Shown one piece after another: positions 44,997 through 59,712 of a stretch of 64,000 bases of DNA. The stretch spans positions 26,133 to 90,132 of the forward strand of contig JAAVEO010000039.1 of assembly GCA_014801225.1 (NCBI GenBank). Reading direction: 5' to 3'. The notes beneath the pieces were generated by a model. The model made no database searches and was not told the DNA's origin. It saw only the letters and a list, made by a program, of their open reading frames with translations. A program made the position numbers and the translations under genes. Position 1 is the stretch's first letter, and each line of letters opens with the position of its first letter. The stretch comes from Bacteroides sp. (GTDB lineage: Bacteria > Bacteroidota > Bacteroidia > Bacteroidales > Muribaculaceae).

Positions 44997-45004
44997 TACC
45001 TTTG
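44997..45004 (+). promoter_or_regulatory. Candidate -7 promoter element (TACCTTTG) for the signalling island leader
   Basis: Matches TAnnTTTG about 440 nt upstream of the LytTR start. Confidence 0.5.
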
Positions 45005-45161
45005 TATTATCGAAGGGCACTAAACTTAGTGAATACGCACATTCATAAACGGGTTTAGGCCAACTTCTCATATTCCACGCTGTGGGTATGTCTAAGAGTA
45101 GACACATATCGGTCAGCGGGAGAAATAATAGTAAAAAGCGTGTATTGACGCTTGTTCCAAA

Positions 45162-45389
45162 CTGTTCAGAACTTAGGACACTCTGACTACTCACTTCGGG
45201 ACACGGCAGCAATAGACGCCACGGGGTATGTAATATACCGACTCGGGCTCATTTCAAGCATTCCCGCTTGGAATGGGTTTGGGGTATATACATATACAGC
45301 GTGGAGTCCGTTGCTCAATCCGGTGAGTTGGGCACGTCCTAAGGCCTTGAACAGCGGAGTGAGCAACAATGAGACTCCCCGCTTTTTTT
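45162..45389 (+). ncRNA. Long nested hairpin with an adjoining terminator (candidate attenuator or antisense element)
   Basis: Nested pairings CTGTTCA/TGAACAG, CTTAGGAC/GTCCTAAG, ACTCAC/GTGAGT, GACGCCACG/CGTGGAGTC, TATACC/GGTATA and CGGGCTCATTTCAAGC/GCTTGGAATGGGTTTG, followed by GCGGAGT...ACTCCCCGC and a T-tract. Confidence 0.65.
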
Positions 45390-45445
45390 GTATATGAATT
45401 CTTCTTTCCTCCCGGGGTCTAAGGGCATCACGGTCAGCACGAAAC

Positions 45446-45823
45446 ATGACACACTTGAAAGCATCGGAAACCACCCTATTCTTCAATACGAGGGATGAGA
45501 TGATAAAGGTAAAATTGGAAAAAGTGGCTTATTTCGAATCGGATTCCAATTACTGCCATGCCGTATTCATCAACGGCGCGAAGGCCACACTCCTCACAAG
45601 CCTGGTAAATATCGAGCAACTGATTTCCGAACGATTCCGAGGTGAGGACCCTTTGTTTATCCGCATCGGGAAACGCTTCATTGTTAATCGCCGTTTCATT
45701 TTTCAGATCAATATTCCAAAACAGAAACTCATGCTGTCCGATTTTGTATCTCCACTGATTTTGGAATTATCAATCTCAAAAGAGGCTTTGAAAAACCTCA
45801 AACATCTTTACACATCCAACTGA
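45446..45823 (+). CDS. Stand-alone LytTR DNA-binding protein
   Basis: VAYFESDSNYC and FIRIGKRFIVN, the LytTR F.R.HRS.IVN pattern; no receiver domain. Confidence 0.85.
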   Translation: MTHLKASETTLFFNTRDEMIKVKLEKVAYFESDSNYCHAVFINGAKATLLTSLVNIEQLISERFRGEDPLFIRIGKRFIVNRRFIFQINIPKQKLMLSDFVSPLILELSISKEALKNLKHLYTSN

Positions 45824-45876
45824 AATTTACCGACCAAGCAGCAAAGAATAACGCTACTTAATCATTAGTATTGCAA

Positions 45877-46590
45877 ATGGAAATTATAATTGGCCGACAA
45901 GGCACTCAGAAAACAAAAATTACAGATCCTACCGTCAGCCGGCAACATTGTAAAGTAACGGTAAATCCCGACGGAACCTATACCGTAGAAAACCTTAGCC
46001 AACACGGCACTAAAATTGACGGACGCGATATCTTGAAAGCTACGGCTCAATCCGGCAGCCGTATCCAATTGGGAAGCTCATATTCCGCCGTACTTGCCGA
46101 CCTTATCGGGGCGACACCTCAGCAGAGATGCACAGCTTCCGACCGACGAATCTCAACATCGGAAACCTCCACTCCATCATCTCAATCTTCCCAAAAGGAA
46201 ATTAAGACTTTCAATATAGCTCATCTCAAACGAGTATGGGAGGATTTCAATCAGACCAATATTGAGAAATCGAATGAGCAGCGAAAAATCAATCTTATCC
46301 GTACCGGAATGGGTATCTTCACAATGTGTGCCATGCCGTTGATATATTTCTGCGGACCCGTAGGATACGCAATGACAGCAATAGGTATTTTAGGTAATAT
46401 CTACAGCTTCACGGGTATGAAGAATGCAGAGACGGCGGAAGACAGACAGCGACGTCAGGATGAGTTTGACGATGCATGGGTATGTCCGAATCCGGCTTGC
46501 GGACGATCGTTACTCGCAAAAAACTATAAGATGCTTCTGCGCAATCATAAGTCATGTCCCTATTGCAAATGCAAGTATGTGGAAAAGTAA
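45877..46590 (+). CDS. FHA-domain membrane protein with a C-terminal Zn finger
   Basis: IIIGR, VSRQH and HGT (FHA); Ser/Thr-rich linker; hydrophobic hairpin; CPNPAC...CPYC. Confidence 0.88.
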   Translation: MEIIIGRQGTQKTKITDPTVSRQHCKVTVNPDGTYTVENLSQHGTKIDGRDILKATAQSGSRIQLGSSYSAVLADLIGATPQQRCTASDRRISTSETSTPSSQSSQKEIKTFNIAHLKRVWEDFNQTNIEKSNEQRKINLIRTGMGIFTMCAMPLIYFCGPVGYAMTAIGILGNIYSFTGMKNAETAEDRQRRQDEFDDAWVCPNPACGRSLLAKNYKMLLRNHKSCPYCKCKYVEK

Positions 46591-47311
46591 ACTCTTTTTA
46601 GCCATTCTGGTGGGTATTCTCCCTCTGCTTGCCCGAGGAGAGACGTATGTGGTATGTGTAGGGATCGGGAAGTATGCAAATCCTAAGGTGAAGACTCTTA
46701 TCAAGACGGAGAAAGATGCTAAAGCCGTGGCTGATTTCTATAAGAACGGTACTCCTAATGTAATAACCGTCACAGGAAGATATGCCACCAAAACAAGAAT
46801 TCTCCAATCACTCGCCGACCAATTCGGCAGGGCCAAAGCCGGAGATAAGATTATATTTTATTTCAGCGGGCATGGCTATCCGGGTGGGTTCTGTCCGTAT
46901 GAAATGCAAAAGATAGAGGACGGTCTCACTTATGCGGATGTGATAAAGGTAATGAGTCGGTCGAAAGCCAAAGATAAATTCATTTTTGCAGATGCCTGCA
47001 ACAGCGGCGCAATCCGACAGAGCAAGACAACCCCAAATCCCCAGCCGGGCAATATTCTGCTTTTCCTATCATCACGTGGTAATGAATACTCTATAGAATC
47101 TCCTCTCCTTTCCAATGGATATTTCACCAACTTCCTTCTTCATGGTCTCCGGGGGAAGGCGGATACCAACGGAGATAAGGCAATCACAGCTAAGGAACTT
47201 TATAATTATGTTTCTTCGGGAGTAACGGAATTATCGAAGGGTAAGCAACATCCTGTAATGTGGGGTAATTTTCCCGACAATCTCGTCATCGTGAAATATA
47301 ACAAGAAATAG
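46577..47311 (+). CDS. Caspase-family (peptidase C14) protease with a signal peptide
   Basis: Start at ATG 46577 gives MWKSKLFLAILVGILPLLARG. Catalytic dyad in FSGHG and DACNSG; ADTNGDKAIT and QHP motifs. Confidence 0.9.
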   Translation: MWKSKLFLAILVGILPLLARGETYVVCVGIGKYANPKVKTLIKTEKDAKAVADFYKNGTPNVITVTGRYATKTRILQSLADQFGRAKAGDKIIFYFSGHGYPGGFCPYEMQKIEDGLTYADVIKVMSRSKAKDKFIFADACNSGAIRQSKTTPNPQPGNILLFLSSRGNEYSIESPLLSNGYFTNFLLHGLRGKADTNGDKAITAKELYNYVSSGVTELSKGKQHPVMWGNFPDNLVIVKYNKK

Positions 47312-47419
47312 GTTTGGTCAATTAAAACCGCCATTTCATCCATCATCAGCCGACAGCCAATGATTAAACTTTGCTCTTGGATTAACTTTGTATAAAATAA
47401 CACTAACAACACATCTACC

Positions 47420-47563
47420 ATGTTTCCAATATTTTGGATTGCAGTATGGGCTCTTATATTCAGTATTTTTGACGAGCCCTCCACAGCCCAAATCTGGGGT
47501 TTCATAATAATAGGACTCGGAGGACCTATTGGTAATTGGTTAATTCATGCTCTAAGAGACTAA
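47420..47563 (+). CDS. 47-aa two-helix membrane peptide
   Basis: MFPIFWIAVWALIFSIFDEPSTAQIWGFIIIGLGGPIGNWLIHALRD*. It has an A/C-rich leader and its stop lies 4 nt before the kinase ATG. Below the ORF-track cutoff. Confidence 0.6.
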   Translation: MFPIFWIAVWALIFSIFDEPSTAQIWGFIIIGLGGPIGNWLIHALRD

Positions 47564-47567
47564 TATT

Positions 47568-48791
47568 ATGCAGCTTAAGGAAGGATCAGAGCTTCAGAAC
47601 GGAAAATACAGGATAATCCGTGTCCTCGGGCAGGGAGGATTCGGAATAACCTATCTTGCGGAAAATATTTATTTCGAAAAGATGGTCGCTATTAAGGAAT
47701 TCTTCCCAAAGGATTTCTGCGGACGCGACAATACGAGCCATCTCACTCTCGGCACGCAGAATAATGCCGAGACTGTAGAGAAACTTAAGGCCCGCTTTTT
47801 GAAAGAAGCCAGAAATATCGCCAAACTTGATCATCCCGGTATCATTAAGATTCACGATATTTTCGAGGAGAACAATACGGCCTACTATGTGATGGATTAT
47901 ATCGAAGGGGAGAACCTCAACGTGATGATGAAGTATGACGGACCTATGTCGGAAAAGAAGGCTGTTGGCTATATCACCAAGGTGGGTGAGGCGCTGGAGT
48001 ATATCCATTCGCGTCAGATGACTCATTTCGATGTCAAACCTGCGAACATCATGGTGAGGAGGGCCGATAACATGCCAATCCTCATTGACTTCGGACTCTC
48101 CAAGCAATATGACGCTCAAGGGGATGCCACCTCCACACTTATGCAGGGAGTAAGCCATGGATATTCTCCCATTGAGCTTTACAATGCCGAAGCCATCACC
48201 AGTTTCTCTCCACAAACCGATGTCTACTCCCTGGCAGCGACTCTTCTCTATCTCCTTACCGGCTCCACACCTCATACCGCTTCCCAATTAATCGAGGAAG
48301 GTCTTAATCTCCCTGCCGGAATAAGCCCTTCAATTGCAAAAGCCATTGAAGAAGGTATGGCTTTCTCCCGTACGAAACGCCTCCCCTCCGTCTCAGCCTT
48401 TCTTAGCCTACTAAAGGGCATTCCAAATCCAAGTGTTTCGACATATCAAGAAACTAAATCTCCCGCACCTCCCTACAGTGAGGAGACTCGTATTATAACC
48501 GATAACACCCGAACTTCTACAGAGAATTATTCCTCCGATTATAATTACTCAAATAGTAAGCCTACCAAAAATAAAGAAGATAATAGTTTTCTTTATGCGA
48601 TAATAGGTGGACTCATTGCAATCATAGTTATATTCATAATAATTCAATCTACGGGACACTCAAATTCCGAAGATTCACCTTATGCAGTAGATAGTGATAC
48701 TGTCGTTGCTTATGAAGTTGTTGACGATACTGTGTGGGTTTTGCCAACCTCTGATTCTACTGCGGATGTTGAATATACTCCATATGATTAG
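47568..48791 (+). CDS. Hanks-type Ser/Thr protein kinase 1 (single TM, short acidic outer tail)
   Basis: LGQGGFGITY, VAIKE, HFDVKPAN, DFG, GYSPIE and DVYSL motifs; TM FLYAIIGGLIAIIVIFIII. Confidence 0.95.
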   Translation: MQLKEGSELQNGKYRIIRVLGQGGFGITYLAENIYFEKMVAIKEFFPKDFCGRDNTSHLTLGTQNNAETVEKLKARFLKEARNIAKLDHPGIIKIHDIFEENNTAYYVMDYIEGENLNVMMKYDGPMSEKKAVGYITKVGEALEYIHSRQMTHFDVKPANIMVRRADNMPILIDFGLSKQYDAQGDATSTLMQGVSHGYSPIELYNAEAITSFSPQTDVYSLAATLLYLLTGSTPHTASQLIEEGLNLPAGISPSIAKAIEEGMAFSRTKRLPSVSAFLSLLKGIPNPSVSTYQETKSPAPPYSEETRIITDNTRTSTENYSSDYNYSNSKPTKNKEDNSFLYAIIGGLIAIIVIFIIIQSTGHSNSEDSPYAVDSDTVVAYEVVDDTVWVLPTSDSTADVEYTPYD

Positions 48792-48845
48792 TAATAAACA
48801 TACAGAAAACGTCAACGATTATTAACACCTTTCCACCAAATTATT

Positions 48846-50846
48846 ATGCAGCTTAAAGAAGGTTCAGAGCTTCAGAACGGTAAATATCGGATTCTCCGTA
48901 TCCTCGGGCAGGGAGGATTCGGAATAACCTATCTTGCGGAGAATATTTATTTCGAAAAGATGGTCGCTATTAAGGAATTCTTTCCAAAGGATTTCTGCGG
49001 ACGCGACAATACGAGCCATCTCACTCTCGGCACGCAGAATAATGCCGAGACTATCGGAAAACTTAAGGCCCGCTTTTTGAAAGAGGCCAGAAATATCGCC
49101 AAACTTGATCATCCCGGTATCATTAAGATTCACGATATTTTCGAGCAGAATAATACGGCCTACTATGTGATGGACTATATCGAGGGGGAGAACCTTAACC
49201 AGATGGTGAAGCGTGACGGTCCTATGTCGGAAGAGAAGGCTGTTGGCTATATCACCAAGGTTGGAGAGGCGCTGGAGTACATCCATTCGCGTCAGATGAC
49301 TCATTTCGATGTAAAACCTGCCAATATTATGGTGAGGAGTGCCGATAACATGCCAATCCTCATCGATTTCGGCCTCTCCAAGCAATATGATGCCCAGGGG
49401 GATGCCACCTCCACACTTATGCAGGGCGTAAGCCACGGCTATTCACCTATTGAGCTTTACAATGCCGGAGCCATCACCAGTTTCTCTCCACAAACCGATG
49501 TCTACTCCCTGGCAGCCACTCTATACTACTTAATCTCAAATACAATTCCTCCTCATGCAACAGTTTTAATAGAAGAAAACATTACTTTTCCTATTGGTTT
49601 TCCAATGAATCTACAGAAAGCTCTATCTAAAGCTATGTCTTCTGCGAGAAAGAATCGCTATGAGAGCGTCTCTATATTTGTTAGCGAAATAAAGACTATG
49701 GAGAAGTCCGAAGATACTCAAATCATTCAGCCTACCCCAACACACGGTAATAATACTCCAAAGATAGAAGCTAAGGCTAATATTAGACTAAATCAAAAAA
49801 TAGAGACGCTTAATCTCCATAATGATGGTTATGAAACGAAAGTTTCAAAAGACACAAATATAAAAAAAACTAAATCGTATTCTATAATATTGGGGATAAC
49901 CATTATTGTTGTACTACTTTTCATATCTTTTTTCAACATAGAATCCACTCAGGACACAGAGATATCTACAAACTTAGTGCCAACTAAGGAAAATATTATT
50001 TCATTAGAGGAACAAATGAATATGAGTAGTCCTGTCATTGTGGAGGCACCAAATTATAATACCTCCAATTATTATTCATCTATTCCAATACCACAGATAA
50101 AGAAAGTAAATCAAAAAAAACTTATCGAATCAGAGTTAATATATTCAGATGAATATATTAAAGAATGGATTTCAAGAAACGCAATAGAAACTTATTTACC
50201 ATTATTCAACGCCTCACCATGTCGCGATGATTATAGTGACATATTAGAATCTCTATGTGATCTACCAGTTCCTTTAGTAATTAATGGTCAAAAACTCAGA
50301 TTTTGGAAACAAGATGACCAATACAACTATTTTGCTTACGAAACAGAATCTTACTCTGAACCGAAACCTATTCGACTATTTATTACCAATAAAGAAAATA
50401 ATAAAGTTCTATTTGATTATAAATTTGATAATTATATTTATCCTCCCCAATTCATAGAATCAAATAAAAATTTAATTAATTTTGAAATTAGCAATTTTAC
50501 TCTTCAAAATAAAATATTGTATTTTTCATTTTATCATCGAACATATGCCGTTTGTTCACACGGAATGAATGGCTATATTTCGGCATTGGAGACGGAATCT
50601 AATAAAATAAAATGGCTGAGCAAATCTTTAGTCTGCAATGCTAATTTTATAATTGATGGGGACTATATCATCACAGGATATGGTTTCACCGACGAACCTG
50701 ACTTTCTTTATATTCTTGATAAATATAATGGTAGTATTATATCCCAAACTCCTCTTGCTAATGGTCCCGAAATCATTGGAATAAATAAGAATCACATATT
50801 TGTGCGAACATATTCTTATGAATATGATTTCATCATTAAAAAATAG
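48846..50846 (+). CDS. Hanks-type Ser/Thr protein kinase 2 (single TM, large outer domain, possibly a PQQ-like propeller)
   Basis: Kinase domain nearly identical to kinase 1; TM IILGITIIVVLLFISFF; AT-rich C-terminal region with ISALETESNKIKW and ITGYGFTDEPDFLYILDKYNG. Confidence 0.94.
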   Translation: MQLKEGSELQNGKYRILRILGQGGFGITYLAENIYFEKMVAIKEFFPKDFCGRDNTSHLTLGTQNNAETIGKLKARFLKEARNIAKLDHPGIIKIHDIFEQNNTAYYVMDYIEGENLNQMVKRDGPMSEEKAVGYITKVGEALEYIHSRQMTHFDVKPANIMVRSADNMPILIDFGLSKQYDAQGDATSTLMQGVSHGYSPIELYNAGAITSFSPQTDVYSLAATLYYLISNTIPPHATVLIEENITFPIGFPMNLQKALSKAMSSARKNRYESVSIFVSEIKTMEKSEDTQIIQPTPTHGNNTPKIEAKANIRLNQKIETLNLHNDGYETKVSKDTNIKKTKSYSIILGITIIVVLLFISFFNIESTQDTEISTNLVPTKENIISLEEQMNMSSPVIVEAPNYNTSNYYSSIPIPQIKKVNQKKLIESELIYSDEYIKEWISRNAIETYLPLFNASPCRDDYSDILESLCDLPVPLVINGQKLRFWKQDDQYNYFAYETESYSEPKPIRLFITNKENNKVLFDYKFDNYIYPPQFIESNKNLINFEISNFTLQNKILYFSFYHRTYAVCSHGMNGYISALETESNKIKWLSKSLVCNANFIIDGDYIITGYGFTDEPDFLYILDKYNGSIISQTPLANGPEIIGINKNHIFVRTYSYEYDFIIKK

Positions 50847-51274
50847 ATATAATATATTACCTTATACCTACAGAACCTCCAGTAATCTTCTTATCAGCCT
50901 ATTTATACTTATTGTGTTCATCATACCTATTAGCAATCATTGAATTAAACATCCTGTTCAATGATGCATCGAGATGAGGATGACATTTTAAATTATTGAA
51001 TATGTGCCACGGTAAACATATTCAATATAATTTCGCGAAAACAATGGTGATAATAAGTTTTATTATCTTTTCCATTGCCCTTCTATAGTGGGCCAAAGCA
51101 TTAGTATATGCAACTATACAGTTAGAGGAGTAGTGGTACAAATTCCAAATGGACAATTCGATACACAACTTAAAAGCACTTGTCGTTGCTTTAACAAAAT
51201 GGTTGTTTTCAATTTTCTTTGACTTGAACGTATTTATTTTCTACAAATAATACAATAAAATTAAGTTTAGTATT

Positions 51275-51312
51275 AATAGTAACAACACATCCGTGGATGT
51301 GTTGTTACTATT
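51275..51312. repeat. Perfect 18-bp inverted repeat
   Basis: AATAGTAACAACACATCC-GT-GGATGTGTTGTTACTATT. Confidence 0.9.
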
Positions 51313-51664
51313 TTAAATTAGCAATCCCCTAATTCTCAAAATTTTTCTAAGAAGTGTAGTCCGATCCAAAACAAAAATAAAATAACAGATAACTGAATAA
51401 TTAAAAATAACGTTATATAGACTTCACAGTTAAGAGCCAAACTTAAGAGCTTTCATCTTCCACTCAAACAAACAAACCATCCAAAATTAGAACAATTTCA
51501 AGGCTCTGTATGGAGAATTGTTATGCTATATAAGGCAAAGGTTCGATAAACTTAACTATATCCAACTTAAGTACATTACTAAAATTTACTTATAATTACA
51601 AATCTATAAATATAATATCAATAACTTTTATACACTAAGTATGTTTTATTAAAAAAATAATACA

Positions 51665-52555
51665 ATGGAATTCATTTTCAAACGTTATTGTCTTACACAT
51701 ACTTATCTCTCCATATATTCAGGACAAGCAACGAAAATAAATATCACAAAGGCGCAAAGAGCAGCCTTGAAAAATGGATACTGGAATGGCTCCACCCATT
51801 CATTCCGGATGCGATGCTTCATGGTATTGGGCAAAGCAAATGGTCTGAGCAACGCCGTCGCCGGAGAACGGGCCGTACAAACGTACCAGCGGGTAATGCA
51901 TTGGGTAAAAAGGTTCCAGACCGATGGAATAGCCGGCCTGAGGAACAAGTCCGGGAATAGCCGCAAGCGCATCATCAGTACCAAGGAAGACACGGAGGCT
52001 GTAAGGGAAGCAATCCGACAGCATCGCCAGAGTGTATCCAAAGCCAGAGCCGCCTGGGAGGAAGCCACCGGGAAATAAATCAAGGACGGAGCCTTCAGGA
52101 ATTTTTTATCAGCGATGGCGCAAGATTTGGACGTATAAGGAAACGTCCGAAGGAAATCCCCTCACCGCAGGAGTACGCTTATAAGAAGGAACTCTTGCAA
52201 GAGCTTGAACATCAATGGGAGTCGGGTCTCATTAACTTGTATTACGGTGATGAAAGCCATGTATGCACCGAAGGGTATGTGTCTTATGCATGGAAATTTA
52301 AAGATGAGGATTTCTGTGTGCCCGTATATAAATGCGGAAGACTCAATATCTTCGGAATGATTGACCGCAATTGTGTCTATCATGGTTTCACCACCGAGCA
52401 GAACATAAACTCCGACAGGTTCATCGAATTTATGGAGCACTTCTCTCTTGGCATCCGCAAGGAGACTGTGGTCGTTCTGGATAACTCCACAGGCCACAGG
52501 AGCCGCACAAGGTAAAGAACTGTCTTCAAAAATGGAAGGAAAGAGGCATAATTGA
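51665..52555 (+). mobile_element. Degenerate IS630-family transposase (pseudogene)
   Basis: HTH part (RMRC...WVKRFQTDGIAGL) with a premature TAA at 52076; T-run junction near 52101; DDE part YYGDESH...VLDNS. It frameshifts near 52510 and is truncated before the LPPYSPELNPIE motif. Confidence 0.85.
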
Positions 52556-52562
52556 GCATCGT

Positions 52563-52826
52563 TTGCCCACAACAAAGCAATTTGAGGAACTGATTGAACA
52601 TTGCAGCTGGTCAACTTTTGAGGAGGATGGTATGCACGGCTATAAGATAATCGGTCCGAATGGTAATATCTTGATGATGCCATTAGGTGCGCTCAACCGT
52701 TATCTTTCGGCTGAATGCCTTAAGCCCGATTCCCTCTATTATTACTTCCTTTATCTCGGAGAATATACTCACACACTCGCCAAAGGGGTACCCACCGAGG
52801 CTAATATTTGGACAGTAAAAGAGTAA
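52563..52826 (+). pseudogene. Orphan C-terminal fragment of a DUF1566-like/lectin-fold domain
   Basis: PTTKQFEELIEHCSW...GMHGYKIIGPNGNILMMP resembles the Bacteroidales 'PT..E..EL...C.W....G..GY...GPNGN.IFLP' domain. It has no ATG start and abuts the IS relic. Confidence 0.55.
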
Positions 52827-52974
52827 AAATATAGCAACAATAGCACTGAAAAAAAACTGCAACAAATCTTTATATAATGATTCCGTAAGTTTTTACCGAA
52901 CTATTGGATAATAAGAAATGGCAATTATTCGTTTCAATAATAATCGGTTTAATTACGTATAATTTATTAAAATT

Positions 52975-53181
52975 ATGAACGCAACCATATCTATGGATGG
53001 ACTTTGGATAATTATTGATTCTTTGTCCACAAAAAATAAGAAATGGCTCATTGATAAGTTACAGCTCTCTTTGTCATCGTCAAAAGAAGCTAAAGAGATA
53101 CTGTCAGGAATAGCTCAATCAGCAAAGGAGGCTAAAGAGGGAAAAACTTTTCCCTTAGATACATTATGGGATCAGCTATAA
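52975..53181 (+). CDS. Putative antitoxin
   Basis: 68 aa overlapping the RelE-like gene; LSTKNKKWL and EAKEGKTFPLDTLWDQL tail typical of RelE-associated antitoxins. Confidence 0.65.
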   Translation: MNATISMDGLWIIIDSLSTKNKKWLIDKLQLSLSSSKEAKEILSGIAQSAKEAKEGKTFPLDTLWDQL

Positions 53182-53519
53182 TTTTCGACTATACTCCCGA
53201 ATTTCTGAAATCAGCTAAAGTCCTTTCCAAGCGATACAAATCATTTGCTGATGATTTAAAGTCATTATGTGAAGAGATTGTTAGGAATCCGAACCTTGGA
53301 GATGATTTGGGAAGTAATATCCGAAAAATAAGGATGCCAATTAAGTCTAAGGGGAAAGGTAAAAGAGGTGGAGCTCGAGTAATTTCACTTTCTATGGTAA
53401 TAGATGAAGAAAAGTCAAAGGTGACGTTTCTGTATGTCTATGACAAAAGTGATATCGCTAACGTTTCGGACAAAAAGATAAAACAAATTATCTTGAACAA
53501 TGAATTACCTATAGAATAA
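53166..53519 (+). CDS. RelE/HigB-2-family toxin
   Basis: FLKSAKVLSKRY, GDDLG, RKIRM...SKGKGKRGGARVI and YDKSD motifs. Confidence 0.88.
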   Translation: MGSAIIFDYTPEFLKSAKVLSKRYKSFADDLKSLCEEIVRNPNLGDDLGSNIRKIRMPIKSKGKGKRGGARVISLSMVIDEEKSKVTFLYVYDKSDIANVSDKKIKQIILNNELPIE

Positions 53520-53749
53520 TCTATATTTTAATTTTAGTTCCGCAGACTCACTTAAGGGGCAGATTTCAGTTATATTGGTCCTTTTGGATCGGTCGTATCT
53601 TGCTATGTGACCGAACTAAAAGGACATTACTTTATGTTAGATCTGTTGTCATCAAGTAATTCTTTCCGTAGGTAAATCTATTTCATCATCCAATCCAATA
53701 GTTTAATCATTCAGGAGTGAAAACTTTTGGCTTTCAGAGAAACCTATTT

Positions 53750-53757
53750 TATCTTTG
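53750..53757 (+). promoter_or_regulatory. -7 promoter element TATCTTTG
   Basis: Exact TAnnTTTG match 27 nt upstream of ATG 53784. Confidence 0.6.
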
Positions 53758-53783
53758 CCGCAAAATCAATACTCTCTGAAATT

Positions 53784-54767
53784 ATGGATAACGAAACTAC
53801 TCGCCTCATCAATGATGGAGGCAATTGCAATACTGAAGGTGCTTCTACCGGTAAGGATTCTCAGGCTACGAACAATTGCAGTACAACTCAGGATTCCTTT
53901 GCGTCTACCCAGCAGGAAAATACGGATGCAAAGAGCGAAAAGAAAGGGAGAACCGTGGCGGCAGGTGTCGGAGGATTTGTAGCCGGAGCTGCTGTCGGTG
54001 TAGGCGCTACAGCCTATGCCACTTCCAAGACGGAAGAAATACCTGTGGATGAAGAAGTTAAAGAGGATGCTTCCCAAGATACGGATATCCCTTCTCCGGA
54101 ACAAGCTATCCTCGCTAATGATGAGGGTATACGCTACGCTCACGTGGATGCCGACAACTTCAACGACGCTTTCTCTCAAGCTCGCGAACAGGTAGGACCC
54201 GGAGGACTCTTCGAATATAACGGCAAACTCTATGGCACATACACTGCCAATGAATGGAATGAAATGTCAATGGAGGAGAGAGCCGATTATCAAAACCGTG
54301 TGAATGAAGTGGCTCCGGCTCATCATTCCGATTCCGCACATGTTGCAACCAATGTGGATGAGGTATCCTTACACGATCATTCTCATGCCGTCGCAGCTCC
54401 GGAAGTTATCCCCGCTAACGCTGAGATGATCTCCCCCGAACCTGCGGACAATGAGATTCGAGTGCTCGGAGTTGAAGCTGTAGAAAATCCCAACGGGGAT
54501 GTGATGAATGTAGCACTCATAAAATGCGAGGGAGATCATGTGCTGCTCGTAGATGTAGACAATAGCGGCACAATTGACGTTGCCATCCATGATGACAACT
54601 ATGACGGCCAGATTCAGCCGTCGGAAGTATACGATATTTCGGAAGCCGGTATGCAGGTGTCCGATCTTCTGCAAGCCCAGGCCGCACAGGAGGGTCAGAC
54701 TTTCACTGCATCGGCCGATGATATGCCGGATTATATCAACGACTCCGACTCCATAATGTCGGTATGA
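53784..54767 (+). CDS. Acidic hypothetical protein with a Gly/Ala-rich hydrophobic segment and DxDxDG-like loops
   Basis: Starts MDNETTRLI; VAAGVGGFVAGAAVGVGATAYA; FNDAFSQAREQVGPGGLFEYNGKLYGTY; DVDNSGTID and DDNYDGQI. Confidence 0.8.
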   Translation: MDNETTRLINDGGNCNTEGASTGKDSQATNNCSTTQDSFASTQQENTDAKSEKKGRTVAAGVGGFVAGAAVGVGATAYATSKTEEIPVDEEVKEDASQDTDIPSPEQAILANDEGIRYAHVDADNFNDAFSQAREQVGPGGLFEYNGKLYGTYTANEWNEMSMEERADYQNRVNEVAPAHHSDSAHVATNVDEVSLHDHSHAVAAPEVIPANAEMISPEPADNEIRVLGVEAVENPNGDVMNVALIKCEGDHVLLVDVDNSGTIDVAIHDDNYDGQIQPSEVYDISEAGMQVSDLLQAQAAQEGQTFTASADDMPDYINDSDSIMSV

Positions 54768-54771
54768 TTCT

Positions 54772-55317
54772 ATGGGAAAGATATTTATAGTATGTCCCGC
54801 ATGCCGGCAGCAGTTATCGTTCAATGAAGTGCCGGGGTATCAGAACATGGTGATCGAGTGTCCTAAATGTCACTTCAAAGCCAATGCCAGCGTATATCAG
54901 AGTGGCTCCCAGGCCCGAGGTGTCCAAGGCTTCGACGATATGCCTACGCAATTGGTGATGCCACCCGCTACCGGGAAGGATATCGGGCAAATTCGTGTAA
55001 AATCCACCAACGAGATACAATTTCTCAAACCGGGACGCAACATCATCGGGAGGCGCGCCCAAACGGGCACGGCCGACATCAAGATAAGCACGGATATGTA
55101 CATGAGCCGTCAGCACGTACTTATTGACGTTGTGAAAAAAGGGACCGGTTATGAACATCATCTTGTGGAAATAAATTCAAAAAATATCGTTAAATTAAAC
55201 GGTAGCCCTATCCACCGAGGGGATATTCTTATTCTTAATTTCGGCGATACGATGACACTCGGCACTACCGACATCATTTTGGAATCGTGTGATGACGAGG
55301 CCACCCGGATAGTATAA
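54772..55317 (+). CDS. Zn-ribbon plus FHA-domain protein
   Basis: CPAC...CPKC; NIIGRR, MSRQH, NSKN and GDTMTLG (FHA). Confidence 0.88.
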   Translation: MGKIFIVCPACRQQLSFNEVPGYQNMVIECPKCHFKANASVYQSGSQARGVQGFDDMPTQLVMPPATGKDIGQIRVKSTNEIQFLKPGRNIIGRRAQTGTADIKISTDMYMSRQHVLIDVVKKGTGYEHHLVEINSKNIVKLNGSPIHRGDILILNFGDTMTLGTTDIILESCDDEATRIV

Positions 55318-55327
55318 CAATCTTACC

Positions 55328-56428
55328 ATGATCACAATCAGACAACCCCTTTGCTTCTCGGAAATAGGACGCAAAGATAATCAAGAGGATTTCCTTTATC
55401 CGCAACATGCCGATACTGCCACACGTGTATTTATCATGTGTGACGGCATGGGGGGCCACGACAACGGAGAAGTGGCAAGTCGCACGGCAGCCACAGCTCT
55501 TGGAGAATACCTCTCATCCTGTCGTAAGGTTGACCTTGATGTATTCGATACGGGACTCTCTTTGGCTTACGATGCTTTGGACGGTATAGACACCAATTCC
55601 GCAAAGAAACCGGGCACAACCATGACCTGTCTATGCCTTAACGATGACTCATATCTTGTGGCCCATATAGGCGACAGCCGAATTTATCATATTCGTCCGA
55701 GTCTTTTCAATAAGTCTACAAAACGAGGGGGAATACTGTATCAATCATCCGACCATTCTCTTGTGAACGATCTTCTGAAAGCCGGAGAACTGACGGAGGA
55801 GGAAGCTCATCTGTTTCCTCATAAGAATGTGATCACCCGTGCCATGCAGCCGCATCTTGACAAACGCTATTCTGCTGATGAATATGTGTTTGACGATATA
55901 GAGGCGGGAGATTATTTCTTCCTGTGTTGTGACGGAGTGCTGGAACAACTCTCCAATGAAGACTTATGTGAGATCCTCGCAAATGATAGTCTCAATGACA
56001 AGCAGAAACTCACTGCAATAAAGAGTATATGCGATGGCAAAACACGTGACAACTATACGTGTTGGCTCATTCCGATTGATGAAGTGGAGATAGCGCGCAA
56101 ATCGGAGAATTCCATGATTATTCAGGCATCCTCAGAAGAGAATGAAGATACCGAGGCTGATTTGGAAGATACTGCGGGGAATATTCTGCCAAAGGATTCA
56201 AGTAACGCCTCATCCTCTTCTCATCCAAAAACAGTTAAGGATAATCTCAAAGGGTTGCTGAAGCAGATGGCCGGGATTTCCACCGGATCAGCCAAGAAAA
56301 AATGGCTGACTTGGATATTTATCGTCGTTGCTCTCGGCATCGTGGTTTGGGGTGGCATATTTGCTTTCAATACCTTCTTTGCTTCCAATAAAGAGACACC
56401 GATACAAAAACACACCCGAAAACAGTAG
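55328..56428 (+). CDS. PP2C/PPM-family Ser/Thr phosphatase with a C-terminal TM
   Basis: GRKDNQED, CDGMGGH, GTT, HIGDSR, DHS, NVITRAM, CCDG and DN motifs; TM WLTWIFIVVALGIVVWGGIFAF. Confidence 0.95.
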   Translation: MITIRQPLCFSEIGRKDNQEDFLYPQHADTATRVFIMCDGMGGHDNGEVASRTAATALGEYLSSCRKVDLDVFDTGLSLAYDALDGIDTNSAKKPGTTMTCLCLNDDSYLVAHIGDSRIYHIRPSLFNKSTKRGGILYQSSDHSLVNDLLKAGELTEEEAHLFPHKNVITRAMQPHLDKRYSADEYVFDDIEAGDYFFLCCDGVLEQLSNEDLCEILANDSLNDKQKLTAIKSICDGKTRDNYTCWLIPIDEVEIARKSENSMIIQASSEENEDTEADLEDTAGNILPKDSSNASSSSHPKTVKDNLKGLLKQMAGISTGSAKKKWLTWIFIVVALGIVVWGGIFAFNTFFASNKETPIQKHTRKQ

Positions 56429-56604
56429 GGAAGAAAGACGTAAAGAAGGAAAATATACCGGCAGACAGGCATGGCAAGAATACGATAAAACCTTTGAAAG
56501 TCATAAAAACAGCCTCTCAATCAAAAGGAGCGAGTGATAGCCTTGCAACATCTTTACAGTCTAAAGTCAAAAGCGATACGCCGAAAAAGTAGATTATAAA
56601 AGAG

Positions 56605-56647
56605 ATAGCCGGTTGCTCACGGGATGAGAACCGGCTATTTTTGTTTT
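56605..56647. terminator. Terminator between convergent PP2C and pnuC
   Basis: ATAGCCGGTT / AACCGGCTAT stem followed by a T-tract. Confidence 0.8.
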
Positions 56648-56694
56648 AGCGGATAAATTATTTCGGGGGGGGGAGAATATGAGGGGATGGGGTG

Positions 56695-57347: not shown

Positions 57348-59600
57348 TTAGAATTTGAATGAGAGGGTAGCCATAACGTTTACGGGAGCCTGCGCGGCAT
57401 ATCCGGCATAGCGGTAGATTACGGGAGTGTCGCCATCCATATAGTAGCCCGCCCCGGCATAACCGTTGCTGAAGTATTTATTATTGAAGATGTTGTAAAC
57501 ACCAACGCCCACTTTCAACTCTTTGATTCCGCCGATCTTATGGAACAGATAAGCCAGATGAAGATCGGTGACGAAGTATGCTTTGAGCATAGCTTCGGAA
57601 TTACCGGCATTTGTAAGATACTGTTTTCCTACATATCGGCTCTGTAGCGAAGCCTCAAAATCTTTCACATAGAAATTGAAACTGTTGCTGAAAGTAAGAT
57701 CCGCAGAGAAGGCTATAGGAGTATCACCAAGATTGAATGTGATGGGATTGGTCCATTCATCTTCGTAGATATATTCCGTGAAGTCTTTGATCCGGTTGCG
57801 AGAGAGAGTAAGAGTGAAATTCCAGTCAAACCATCGGCAGGGACGTGCACCAAGTTCGAACTCCACACCCATACGGTAGGAATCAGGCACATTGACACTC
57901 ACGGGATTGCCTGTATCCGAGAGCTCGCCGGTAGCTACAAGCTGGTCCTTATAGAGCATATAGTAGAGATTGGCGCCTGCGGAGAAGATAGAGTTGGCAA
58001 ACTTATACCCGGCCTCGAAATCGTTGAGGCGTTCCGCTTCCGGGCGTCGTCCGGGATCTCCGTCGGTAAAATTATCACGGGTCGGTTCTTTACGGGCTAT
58101 AGCCCAAGAGATATATGCGCGATGAGGGCCCGATGTGAAGTTTACTCCAAGTTTGGGGTTGAAGAAATTCCAACGGCGATTGACGTGGAGAGCATAAGGC
58201 GCACCCGTACTCCAATCGAAATTGTCGCTCGCTCCGCTGATAGTGTAGCGTATATGGCGGTATTGGAGATCGGCAAAAGCCGAGAATCGAGAGTCAATAT
58301 CATAGTTGGCACGCAGGAAGAGATTGGCATCTGCCTTATGGCCGTTGTTGTCATAATAAGGCTGGAGAGGATTCAACGGCCCCTCATAATTACGCACCCA
58401 TTTCACCTGACCGAAATGATGACCGTAGAATACAGTGGAAGCTACTCCGAGAGTAAGGTCGATACGTTCCCCTGCATAATTGACATTGACATACCCTCCC
58501 CCGAAATGATTGCGATTATTCTTCAGGCGGATAAGATCGGATTTCTTCACAGTCTCTCCGGCGGCATTGACAAAGGGAGAGAGGCCATACTCCTGCAGAG
58601 TACGTCCTGTCTTGTACTGGTCATAATAGCCGTCGTCGTATGTATAATGCGCGGCTGCATTGAGATGCAGCCCATCGGCGAGACGCTGAGATAGAAGAAG
58701 CTGGAAATGATATTGTGCGTAATTGTCGTACTGGTCGGGATAATAGGCTGTCTTACCATCGGAGTCGATATACTCTCCGCAAGGATTGTAACGACGCCCG
58801 TATTTCTCCATATCGGCAAGTGAGGCGTAATCCCACGCCATGTAAGTGCGTTCCTTTCCACCGAAAGAGAGTAAACGTAAGAGAGTACCGCCCGTACGGA
58901 GAGCGGCCTGCCCGAAATAGCTCCAGAGCTTGGAGGATGCCCTGTCGATATAGCCATCCGAACCAAGATGAGAGAGACGCATATCAAAACTCCATTTGCC
59001 ACCAAGCAAACCGGTGCCGACACGGATTGCCTCGCGATTTGTATTGTAGGAACCGTAAGCGCCATCCACTTCAGCGTAAGCCTCACGCGAAGGAGTATCC
59101 GTAATCATATTCACGCTCGCACCGAAGGCACCGGCACCGTTGGAAGACGTTCCGGCACCACGCTGCACCTGCACATCTCTCAGCGAAGAGGCAAGGTCGG
59201 GCATATTTACCCAGTATACATTATGACTCTCGGGATTATTGATCGGGATACCGTTGGCGGTGACATTAATACGCGAACCATCCGTACCTCTCACACGCAT
59301 GGAAGTATATCCTATACCGGCTCCCGCATCGGAAGTGACCGTAATTGAGGGAGTCATCTGAAGAAGATAGGTCATATCGCGACCGTCATTGTCGCGATTA
59401 AGCTCGGATTTACTCAGATTGGAGAAAGCCACGGGAGTCTTGGCCGTGGCACGGTTGCCCAACACTTCCAGTTGGGCCAAAGTAACGGAAGGGATAGTGT
59501 CTACAAACGTTGTATCGACGGAAGAGAGATTGGAGTCCGCAAATACGGGGAAAGCGCCCCCTGCGATGAGCAGAAGCGACGCAAGGCAATATTTTTCCAT
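57348..59600 (-). CDS. TonB-dependent receptor, probable thiamine transporter
   Basis: Plug SDAGAGIGYTSMRVRG...RINVTANGIP...VYWVNMPD...QRGAG; terminal F; under a TPP riboswitch. Confidence 0.92.
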   Translation of the reverse strand: MEKYCLASLLLIAGGAFPVFADSNLSSVDTTFVDTIPSVTLAQLEVLGNRATAKTPVAFSNLSKSELNRDNDGRDMTYLLQMTPSITVTSDAGAGIGYTSMRVRGTDGSRINVTANGIPINNPESHNVYWVNMPDLASSLRDVQVQRGAGTSSNGAGAFGASVNMITDTPSREAYAEVDGAYGSYNTNREAIRVGTGLLGGKWSFDMRLSHLGSDGYIDRASSKLWSYFGQAALRTGGTLLRLLSFGGKERTYMAWDYASLADMEKYGRRYNPCGEYIDSDGKTAYYPDQYDNYAQYHFQLLLSQRLADGLHLNAAAHYTYDDGYYDQYKTGRTLQEYGLSPFVNAAGETVKKSDLIRLKNNRNHFGGGYVNVNYAGERIDLTLGVASTVFYGHHFGQVKWVRNYEGPLNPLQPYYDNNGHKADANLFLRANYDIDSRFSAFADLQYRHIRYTISGASDNFDWSTGAPYALHVNRRWNFFNPKLGVNFTSGPHRAYISWAIARKEPTRDNFTDGDPGRRPEAERLNDFEAGYKFANSIFSAGANLYYMLYKDQLVATGELSDTGNPVSVNVPDSYRMGVEFELGARPCRWFDWNFTLTLSRNRIKDFTEYIYEDEWTNPITFNLGDTPIAFSADLTFSNSFNFYVKDFEASLQSRYVGKQYLTNAGNSEAMLKAYFVTDLHLAYLFHKIGGIKELKVGVGVYNIFNNKYFSNGYAGAGYYMDGDTPVIYRYAGYAAQAPVNVMATLSFKF

Positions 59601-59607
59601 ATTAAAA

Positions 59608-59712
59608 TCTTCACTACGCCGGTATTACCCGGATCAGGTTCAAAGGGTATGATCTCAGAGCGGCCGGCGCATTGACTCTTCAAGCGCCTTCGGGCCGAAC
59701 ACCCCCGGAGGG
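59608..59712 (-). promoter_or_regulatory. TPP riboswitch
   Basis: The minus strand reads GGGGTG...CTGAGATCATACCCTTTGAACCTGATCCGGGTAATACCGGCGTAG, the canonical TPP aptamer core. A TAATTTTG promoter element lies at 59745-59752 (-). Confidence 0.95.

Follow-up and report, generated by a model that had tools for sequence, protein, structure and literature searches.

A 64,000-nucleotide stretch of a Bacteroides sp. genome (GCA_014801225.1, contig JAAVEO010000039.1, positions 26,133 to 90,132 of the forward strand; hereafter the window) carries a copy of a conserved, mobile and recurring gene set of Bacteroidota that encodes two forkhead-associated (FHA) proteins (FHA1 and the Zn-ribbon protein Zn-FHA), receptor-like Ser/Thr kinases (here K1 and K2), a PP2C phosphatase, an acidic membrane protein, a LytTR regulator and an exported caspase-fold peptidase. 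The module is kinase-FHA-PP2C signalling in an apparently undescribed form, marked by a new scaffold protein and by the export of its caspase. Judging from the sequences, it would act as a trans-envelope threonine phosphorylation switch with interchangeable outside sensors whose output, in gut bacteria without a type VI secretion system (T6SS), would be a response to envelope threat or contact through the caspase and the LytTR protein, a reading that we give somewhat better than even chances.

An earlier sequence-only reading of the window had proposed a self-contained island of kinases, FHA proteins, a phosphatase and a caspase. All the genes it named were found, co-oriented on the plus strand (45446..56428), about where it had placed them, with Pfam matches (E-values: LytTR 7.5e-7; FHA 4.5e-13 and 5.6e-7; Peptidase_C14 2.8e-15; Pkinase 2e-37 and 7e-37; PP2C 3e-8) and intact catalytic motifs, namely VAIK, HFDVKPAN and DFG in the kinases, the metal motifs in PP2C and, by alignment, SGHG and DAC in the caspase. 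The source assembly (G000; 2.09 Mb, 68% complete; window on contig C39) contains the module once; among named genomes, those with the most closely related caspase and PP2C are gut Muribaculaceae and Bacteroidales metagenome-assembled genomes. Four weaker kinase-domain matches lie elsewhere in the source genome (C31:340-903, C31:5297-5860, C15:41853 and C30:19921).

A caspase profile retrieved 253 relatives from GTDB species genomes, and the best 80 of the 253 were kept as caspase-anchored loci. Among these, LytTR was present in 56, FHA1 in 64, the ~65-residue 'AFxxAR' (AF) domain of the acidic protein in 61 and its C-terminal domain in 67, Zn-FHA in 69, PP2C in 66 and a kinase in 62. The survey of Bacteroidales neighbourhoods that the sequence-only reading had suggested thus shows the genes to be co-conserved, with all seven markers in 19 and at least six in 25 of the 30 loci of at least 19 kb, where the number of kinases per locus ranges from 0 to 5. 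PP2C was matched in 31 of 61 genomes, the source genome included, in regions with the same neighbours and unrelated flanks. Twenty own-family loci anchored on the acidic protein, many of them truncated and some on contigs repeated from the earlier sets, contained LytTR in 13 cases, FHA1 in 16, caspase in 14, Zn-FHA in 19, PP2C in 16 and a kinase in 11. The AF domain was detected in 25 of the 200 genomes searched in the same family, in 11 of 300 from the same order and in 2 of 400 from the phylum, and it occurs in 2703 representatives at 50% identity.

The core occurs in conserved order across two orders, and the succession FHA1-acidic-Zn-FHA-PP2C is kept in most loci of a free-living family (f42). 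Cultured carriers include Runella rosea, whose plasmid NZ_CP030851.1 encodes FHA-hypothetical-FHA-PP2C-caspase, Odoribacter lunatus (L079) and Bacteroides caecigallinarum (L095). In a quick, unrooted PP2C tree of 106 rows, the gut copies form a clade of 68 with families intermixed and the stand-alone f42 copies a clade of 18, next to two mainly T6SS-linked groups. Recurring accessory genes encode an LRR_5 protein (37), a 130-residue coiled coil (28), an FGE-sulfatase protein (22) and an Lcl_C-like protein (15) in gut loci, and a lipoprotein (18) and a TPR protein (18) in f42 loci, all of them predicted to be exported. The sequence-only reading placed the island between core genes; of 14 relatives fetched at the pnuC flank in search of an empty site, none had the left-flank synteny or the module.

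Related arrangements were seen inside the module, beside it or apart from it. Many gut loci (e.g., L003:5651-7835) contain an optional trio, missing from the window copy, of a short acidic paralogue without the AF domain, an LRR_5 protein of ~350 residues and a secreted coiled-coil protein of ~130 residues with a conserved Cys. A second Bacteroidales cluster type (L018, L019) combines three or four FHA proteins, two PP2C, RD-like kinases and a caspase, with no AF-domain protein. In G034, vWA, phosphatase-like and 1500-residue genes that precede the module by some 15 kb (L020:5976-15388) resemble a TerY-P triad, the vWA gene being presumably TerY-like.

Threonine motif, kinases and exported caspase

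The hallmark acidic protein matched nothing in Pfam, NCBIfam, PHROG or PADLOC. An AlphaFold2 (AF2) model and alignments give it a disordered N-terminal tail, a Gly/Ala-rich transmembrane (TM) segment and two folded domains; against the Protein Data Bank, the best Z score was 4.7 (root-mean-square deviation 5.3, 86 aligned residues), Foldseek E-values were at least 0.24, and the AF domain alone was barely covered. We predict that it serves as kinase substrate and scaffold. FHA1, whose AF2 model has a pLDDT (confidence score) of 89 and matches only FHA domains in Foldseek, is predicted to be a membrane-tethered reader of phosphothreonine.

The tails of the acidic proteins contain repeats of the motif [DE]xTx[ILFVMY], which was counted against composition-preserving shuffles in dereplicated sets from which sequences with no predicted TM segment (2 acidic proteins, 27 kinase tails and 7 PP2C tails) had been removed. 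Ahead of the TM segment of the acidic proteins the motif is 12.5-fold enriched (98 versus 7.9 in shuffles, in 56 of 61 proteins), and behind it depleted (25 versus 56.6). The juxtamembrane linkers of the kinases show 5.6-fold enrichment (99 versus 17.7) and their post-TM parts none (36 versus 38.2, 0.9-fold); Zn-FHA is enriched 7-8-fold in linker and C-terminus (linker, 43 versus 6.2), and 250 other open reading frames (ORFs) stand at expectation (266 versus 268, 1.0-fold). Because the motif had been chosen with the tails in view, the test was rerun on later loci with the earlier sequences removed, which gave 14 versus 1.7 (8.1-fold), 13 versus 2.2 (5.9-fold) and 9 versus 1.3 (7.1-fold), with 0 of 1000 shuffles in each case, and post-TM ratios of 0.7 and 1.5. 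The acidic tails of f42 gave 9 versus 1.3 (7.0-fold) and 11 versus 1.9 (5.7-fold); T6SS core proteins showed no clear enrichment. The enrichment on the predicted cytoplasmic side was seen again in two further sets, which makes it likely that the kinase substrates and the docking sites of the FHA proteins are encoded within the module itself. The window copy carries the motif in four proteins (Table 1). For Hanks kinases, the available parts of the cited papers (PMC6554272, PMC12077195), to which all statements on cited work below are likewise limited, describe juxtamembrane phosphorylation as well as acidic-flanked phosphothreonines close to the N-terminus of membrane proteins.

The kinases vary mostly in their ectodomains: 36 close relatives form a single kinase-domain cluster yet fall into 29 ectodomain groups, including 7 with mere stubs no longer than six residues, in agreement with the exchangeable sensor domains foreseen by the sequence-only reading. 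The arginine-aspartate (RD) motif is missing from 136 of 154 kinases of gut and other loci (6 RD, 12 unparsed), and 37 of 41 f42 kinases are RD (4 non-RD). Non-RD kinases are reportedly associated with immunity (PMC8463890). In the window, K2 is a tandem duplicate of K1, identical at 633 of 681 nucleotides and then abruptly divergent, with a tail of GC 0.30; its ectodomain is also found as stand-alone secreted proteins (10 matches) and bears a weak likeness to PQQ/BamB propellers (E = 0.04).

The variable, AT-rich middle that had been noted in the island is real (GC 0.28-0.30 across 49701-51664 versus 0.50-0.52 in the flanks). The sequence-only list had left out three features in the middle of the island, namely an IS630 remnant, what is left of a third kinase, and a RelN-like/RelE pair. 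The kinase remnant, 87 C-terminal residues, is 91% identical to the C-terminus of the L029 kinase and 80% to that of L001, and its relatives match Lcl_C; the RelN-like/RelE pair has no homologues at the other fetched loci. Taken together, the three remnants and passengers mark the window copy as a damaged three-kinase allele like that of L029, in whose middle the third kinase is disrupted next to the IS630 remnant and accompanied by the RelE-type pair. A perfect 18-nucleotide inverted repeat lies in the AT-rich gap (51275-51312), one arm of which resembles 47399-47418, just 5' of a short peptide ORF. This peptide, listed by the sequence-only reading as a component, is present in the window and does not belong to the core, since L028 is the one further locus with a homologue.

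Among 120 module caspases, the SGHG motif is present in all 120, the Cys motif in 109 and a hydrophobic N-terminus in 118, and none has a long C-terminal extension. They possess the His-Cys dyad and acidic S1 Asp residues of clan CD C14 metacaspase-like peptidases. An acidic S1 Asp goes with Arg/Lys preference, and because the S1 Asp of the module caspase aligns with that of metacaspase-1, the enzyme is likely Arg/Lys-specific. At one locus (L110) it is fused to the phosphatase as PP2C-TM-caspase. The available text of PMC3501461 gives neither trigger nor substrate for exported bacterial caspases.

Linkage to type VI secretion and comparison with known systems

The sequence-only reading had remarked on the absence of T6SS and T7SS (type VII) structural genes, the usual surroundings of kinase/FHA/PP2C trios. 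For the gut copies this stands. In the source assembly, 68% complete, no TssC and no WXG100 protein was found, and tblastn with T6SS proteins returned only ClpB-like and FGE matches; the same search found nothing beyond ClpB-like genes in the gut loci, and TssC was detected in none of the 26 carriers from the same family, the majority of which are 90% complete or better, and in none of 10 same-order carriers. For free-living relatives it does not stand, as the same module lies inside T6SS-iii loci in f42. The lead was the only one of 28 carriers with TssC (G429), where the module adjoins a T6SS-iii locus (TssC, ClpV, PAAR, VgrG, TssE/F/G/N). Among 151 genomes of f42, the AF domain occurs in 49 and TssC in 46 (both in 36, module only in 13, TssC only in 10, neither in 92), and the module lies within 40 kb of tssC in 19 of the 36 genomes with both, the gene maps placing FHA1-acidic-Zn-FHA-PP2C-kinase immediately next to tssK or clpV. 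Linkage involves 18 of 26 divergent TssC copies (<600 bits) and 1 of 19 canonical ones (>600 bits). The divergent TssC, at 470-540 bits to PF17541, marks the module-bearing T6SS-iii loci of f42 (L135-L154), whose genomes often contain a canonical T6SS-iii as well. The caspase is present in 19 of 20 stand-alone f42 loci versus 6 of 16 T6SS-linked ones; LytTR, common in the gut copies, is found at 0 of 36 f42 loci. In 201 genomes of another order, 5 carried the module and 16 TssC, with no overlap.

The module is close to the T6SS threonine phosphorylation pathway (TagE/PpkA-TagG/PppA-TagH/Fha1, TagQRST; PMC13584744), with which it shares a membrane Hanks kinase, a PP2C phosphatase and an FHA reader; docking of Fha on phosphorylated TssL in Agrobacterium parallels the N-terminal threonine tail of the acidic protein. 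Some module loci also encode periplasmic FGE-sulfatase partners, and the f42 relatives stand among T6SS core genes. We take FGE-sulfatase to be the domain class of TagR. The module differs in having two Zn-module FHA proteins, the unnamed acidic scaffold, the caspase, LytTR and kinase arrays, and its gut copies occur without a T6SS whereas the f42 relatives are encoded with one. In the available text of the 2026 review of T6SS accessory genes, TagE/G/H are given for Pseudomonadota genera only, and only TagA-C for Bacteroidota (PMC13584744). The actinobacterial fhaA-fhaB-pstP-rodA-pbpA-pknA-pknB locus (PMC6554272) likewise has two FHA proteins, a TM PP2C, two TM kinases and acidic-flanked threonine sites, but the module lacks PASTA domains (155 against a cut-off of 450 for model NF033483), RodA and PbpA, is patchy and mobile rather than conserved, and adds a caspase and variable ectodomains. 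It works like the former pathway and resembles the latter locus, and the window copy is a member of neither.

Among defense systems, KKP (PMC11341870), PD-T4-6 and MADS share generic kinase-domain matches and, in KKP, two kinases balanced by a phosphatase, but no phage genes were seen among the inspected ORFs flanking the module, which has receptor topology, FHA proteins, a scaffold and an exported protease; the NCBIfam MAD6 model scored 122 bits against a cut-off of 460. In the ternary conflict systems with caspases (EACC1, vWA-MoxR, GAP1; PMC7159879, PMC8195603), caspase, kinase, FHA and PP2C are sporadic effectors or regulators, whereas the island and its recurring neighbours contain no MoxR, vWA, GTPase or STAND core and the caspase is exported (65 against 140 for the EACC1-type caspase model). 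In PADLOC-DB (version 2023), 11 of 14 island proteins had no match or, the kinases aside, a generic-domain match only, and partner genes were not found; the window copy belongs to none of the listed systems (PD-T4-6, MADS, PDC-M21), in line with what the sequence-only reading had expected of a new system. No description of the cluster was found in the available text of the literature searched, including PMC7159879, PMC8195603, PMC3482391, PMC3501461 and PMC13584744; supplements, which could list such neighbourhoods, and most subscription papers lay outside the search.

Leader element and other features of the window

The features of the locus are collected in Table 1. The 449-nucleotide leader ahead of LytTR was correctly described as structured, folding as a long hairpin with 0 of 100 shuffles as stable, and a rough z from 10 shuffles per region indicates strong folds upstream of LytTR in 30 of 61 cases. 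It matched nothing in Rfam at E up to 1. A role as a system-specific regulatory RNA was rejected, since the element occurs at 7 other sites in the source genome; an nhmmer profile places its 8 copies before unrelated accessory loci, and the leader is a generic cassette. Its TAnnTTTG element is presumably the Bacteroidetes -7 consensus. The copies (window, L175-L180 on contigs C9, C26, C42, C17, C2 and C38, and C11) vary in arm sequence and keep the long stem; they precede a type III restriction-modification system with an SNF2 helicase, BspA/T9SS LRR proteins, Omp28 and an AAA+/radical SAM cluster, and possibly constitute an attenuator or a mobile promoter element of Bacteroidales that has not been described. 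Another such system may be the last cluster (L178:650-9099), which comprises an ECF-sigma-like ORF, unannotated proteins of 329, 636, 160 and 141 residues, an AAA+ ATPase and a radical SAM enzyme and is perhaps likewise undescribed.

Across the window, Rfam gave no match at gathering score. A non-coding stretch at 59590-59660, upstream of a TonB receptor/pnuC pair, is 87-98% identical in relatives and is, we assume, probably a thiamine pyrophosphate riboswitch. The inverted repeat at the end of the island is likely the terminator between the operon and the convergent pnuC. Among public sequencing runs no RNA run was listed, and one gut DNA run (share 0.07) contained short pieces only.

Table 1. 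Features of the module copy in the window (positions count from the first nucleotide of the window)
Feature	Position	Strand	Evidence and occurrence
Leader: promoter-like TAnnTTTG element, long hairpin, U-tract	44997..45445	+	z -5.9; no Rfam match; nhmmer 8 sites
LytTR-only DNA-binding protein	45446..45823	+	PF04397; 56/80 loci; 0/36 f42 loci
FHA1: FHA domain, long helix, hydrophobic hairpin, C-terminal Cys4 Zn module	45877..46590	+	PF00498; 64/80 loci
Caspase-fold (C14) peptidase with signal peptide, His/Cys intact, predicted periplasmic	46577..47311	+	PF00656, alignment
Hydrophobic 47-residue ORF, accessory	47420..47563	+	One homologue, L028, 67% over 43 residues
K1: receptor-like Ser/Thr kinase, non-RD (HFD), TM 341-359, 48-residue acidic ectodomain, motif Thr307	47568..48791	+	
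K2: receptor-like kinase, TM 347-365, AT-rich ectodomain of ~300 residues, motif Thr291	48846..50846	+	
AT-rich gap, GC 0.28, without long ORF	50847..51664		
IS630-family transposase remnant, two pieces	51665..52515	+	HTH_32/28 and DDE_3
Third-kinase 3' remnant, end of Lcl_C-like ectodomain	52563..52826	+	Matches L029:15455-15715 (91%) and end of L001 kinase (80%)
RelN-like antitoxin / RelE-family toxin pair, passenger	52975..53519	+	PF06296; NF050107 weak
Acidic single-pass protein, module hallmark: Thr6 motif, TM 57-75, ~65-residue 'AFxxAR' domain, DxDxDG-rich C-terminal domain	53784..54767	+	
Zn-FHA: Zn-ribbon-FHA protein, C-terminal motif Thr178	54772..55317	+	PF00498; 69/80 loci
PP2C phosphatase, C-terminal TM 329-347	55328..56428	+	PF00481/PF13672; NF033484 E 2e-42, below cut-off
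Inverted repeat	56595..56648		

Proposed wiring, alternatives and implications

In the proposed circuit, a periplasmic ligand would bind either the ectodomain of a kinase or one of the secreted adaptors (Sel1, FGE-sulfatase, Lcl_C, LRR_5 or WG), upon which the kinase would autophosphorylate its juxtamembrane [DE]xTx[hydrophobic] threonines and modify the same motif on the N-terminal tail of the acidic protein and on Zn-FHA. FHA1 and Zn-FHA would then dock at the phosphothreonines, building a membrane complex around the acidic scaffold, and PP2C would reset the switch. In f42 the divergent T6SS-iii would be set off by this complex, much like the T6SS under PpkA/Fha1/PppA in Proteobacteria; where the module stands alone, the complex would gate transcription as well as Arg/Lys proteolysis in the periplasm. 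The sequences make the wiring itself, that is, phosphorylation of the motif threonines, FHA docking and PP2C reset, quite probable to us. For a threat or contact output the odds appear only slightly favourable. More tentatively, and in our view doubtfully, the module could be a portable phospho-sensing chassis with a new scaffold that serves as the so far unrecognised post-translational trigger of the divergent T6SS-iii in free-living Bacteroidota, its gut form being a rewired array, akin to innate immunity, of non-RD receptor kinases with exchangeable ectodomains, by which a caspase in the periplasm would be switched on as a guard against attack, be it by contact, phage or predator.

Several observations weigh against these proposals. 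The motif was picked after the acidic N-termini had been inspected, which makes the first enrichment test partly circular; PP2C linkers are enriched only 2-fold, the Zn-FHA C-terminus is weak in the held-out set (3 versus 0.7, 25 of 1000 shuffles), and the motif is 1.6-fold enriched behind the TM segment of stand-alone f42 acidic proteins. The epithet 'self-contained' does not fit all loci: no kinase lies in the fetched stretch of 5 of 30 long loci or near 9 of 20 acidic-protein-anchored ones, many of them truncated, and 6 of these 20 are without a caspase. Only gene order and one fusion tie the caspase to the phospho-switch, and no conserved toxic effector was found among the recurring neighbours of module loci. 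The T6SS linkage was seen in one family only and, as the T6SS-linked PP2Cs amount to about two clades, few independent events underlie the contrasts in caspase and in non-RD kinases.

An anti-phage system, in which envelope sensing of phage adsorption or injection would leave an unopposed kinase or protease to arrest the cell, as in KKP, PD-T4-6 and MADS, seems rather unlikely: the PADLOC matches are to generic kinase, caspase and PP2C domains, the protease is exported, there is no conserved nuclease or NADase effector, relatives turned up in only 1 of 38 candidate viral-contig stretches, and the leader precedes surface LRR proteins as well. That the module tunes wall or outer-membrane remodelling, like the actinobacterial fhaA-...-pknB locus, we consider unlikely. 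Both sets of genes comprise a pair of FHA proteins, a pair of TM kinases and a TM PP2C (PMC6554272), K2 hints at a BamB-like propeller, and OmpA and CHAP genes neighbour single loci, but PASTA, RodA and PBP are absent from the recurring neighbours, and a module found in no more than 25 of the 200 genomes of the family and 11 of the 300 of the order, with changing flanks and families intermixed on the tree, argues against a growth regulator.

The tight linkage in f42, the 68% completeness of the source genome and the damage done by IS630 to the middle of the window copy would also fit gut copies that act on an unassembled T6SS encoded elsewhere or are relics of one. This is very unlikely, given that the TssC model that was negative in the 26 own-family and 10 same-order carriers was positive in 46 of 151 f42 genomes, and that catalytic residues are kept over a large gut clade which gained LytTR and kinase arrays. 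A last alternative is that unrelated genes came together by chance at a site prone to insertions. The insertion sequence remnant, the toxin-antitoxin pair and the peptide are indeed passengers, but the core recurs in conserved order in two orders, which refutes this explanation for the core and leaves it a negligible chance overall.

The trans-envelope switch thus remains our preferred reading. What is new in this analysis is the T6SS linkage, the threonine motif and the non-RD results. The motif names exact threonines, namely Thr6 of the acidic protein, Thr307 of K1, Thr291 of K2 and Thr178 of Zn-FHA. The linkage in f42 provides named genes and residues for a possible kinase/FHA/phosphatase control of T6SS in Bacteroidota, which the lists in the available text of the 2026 review do not include (PMC13584744), and the module ties an exported caspase of abundant gut bacteria to a defined set of signalling genes.

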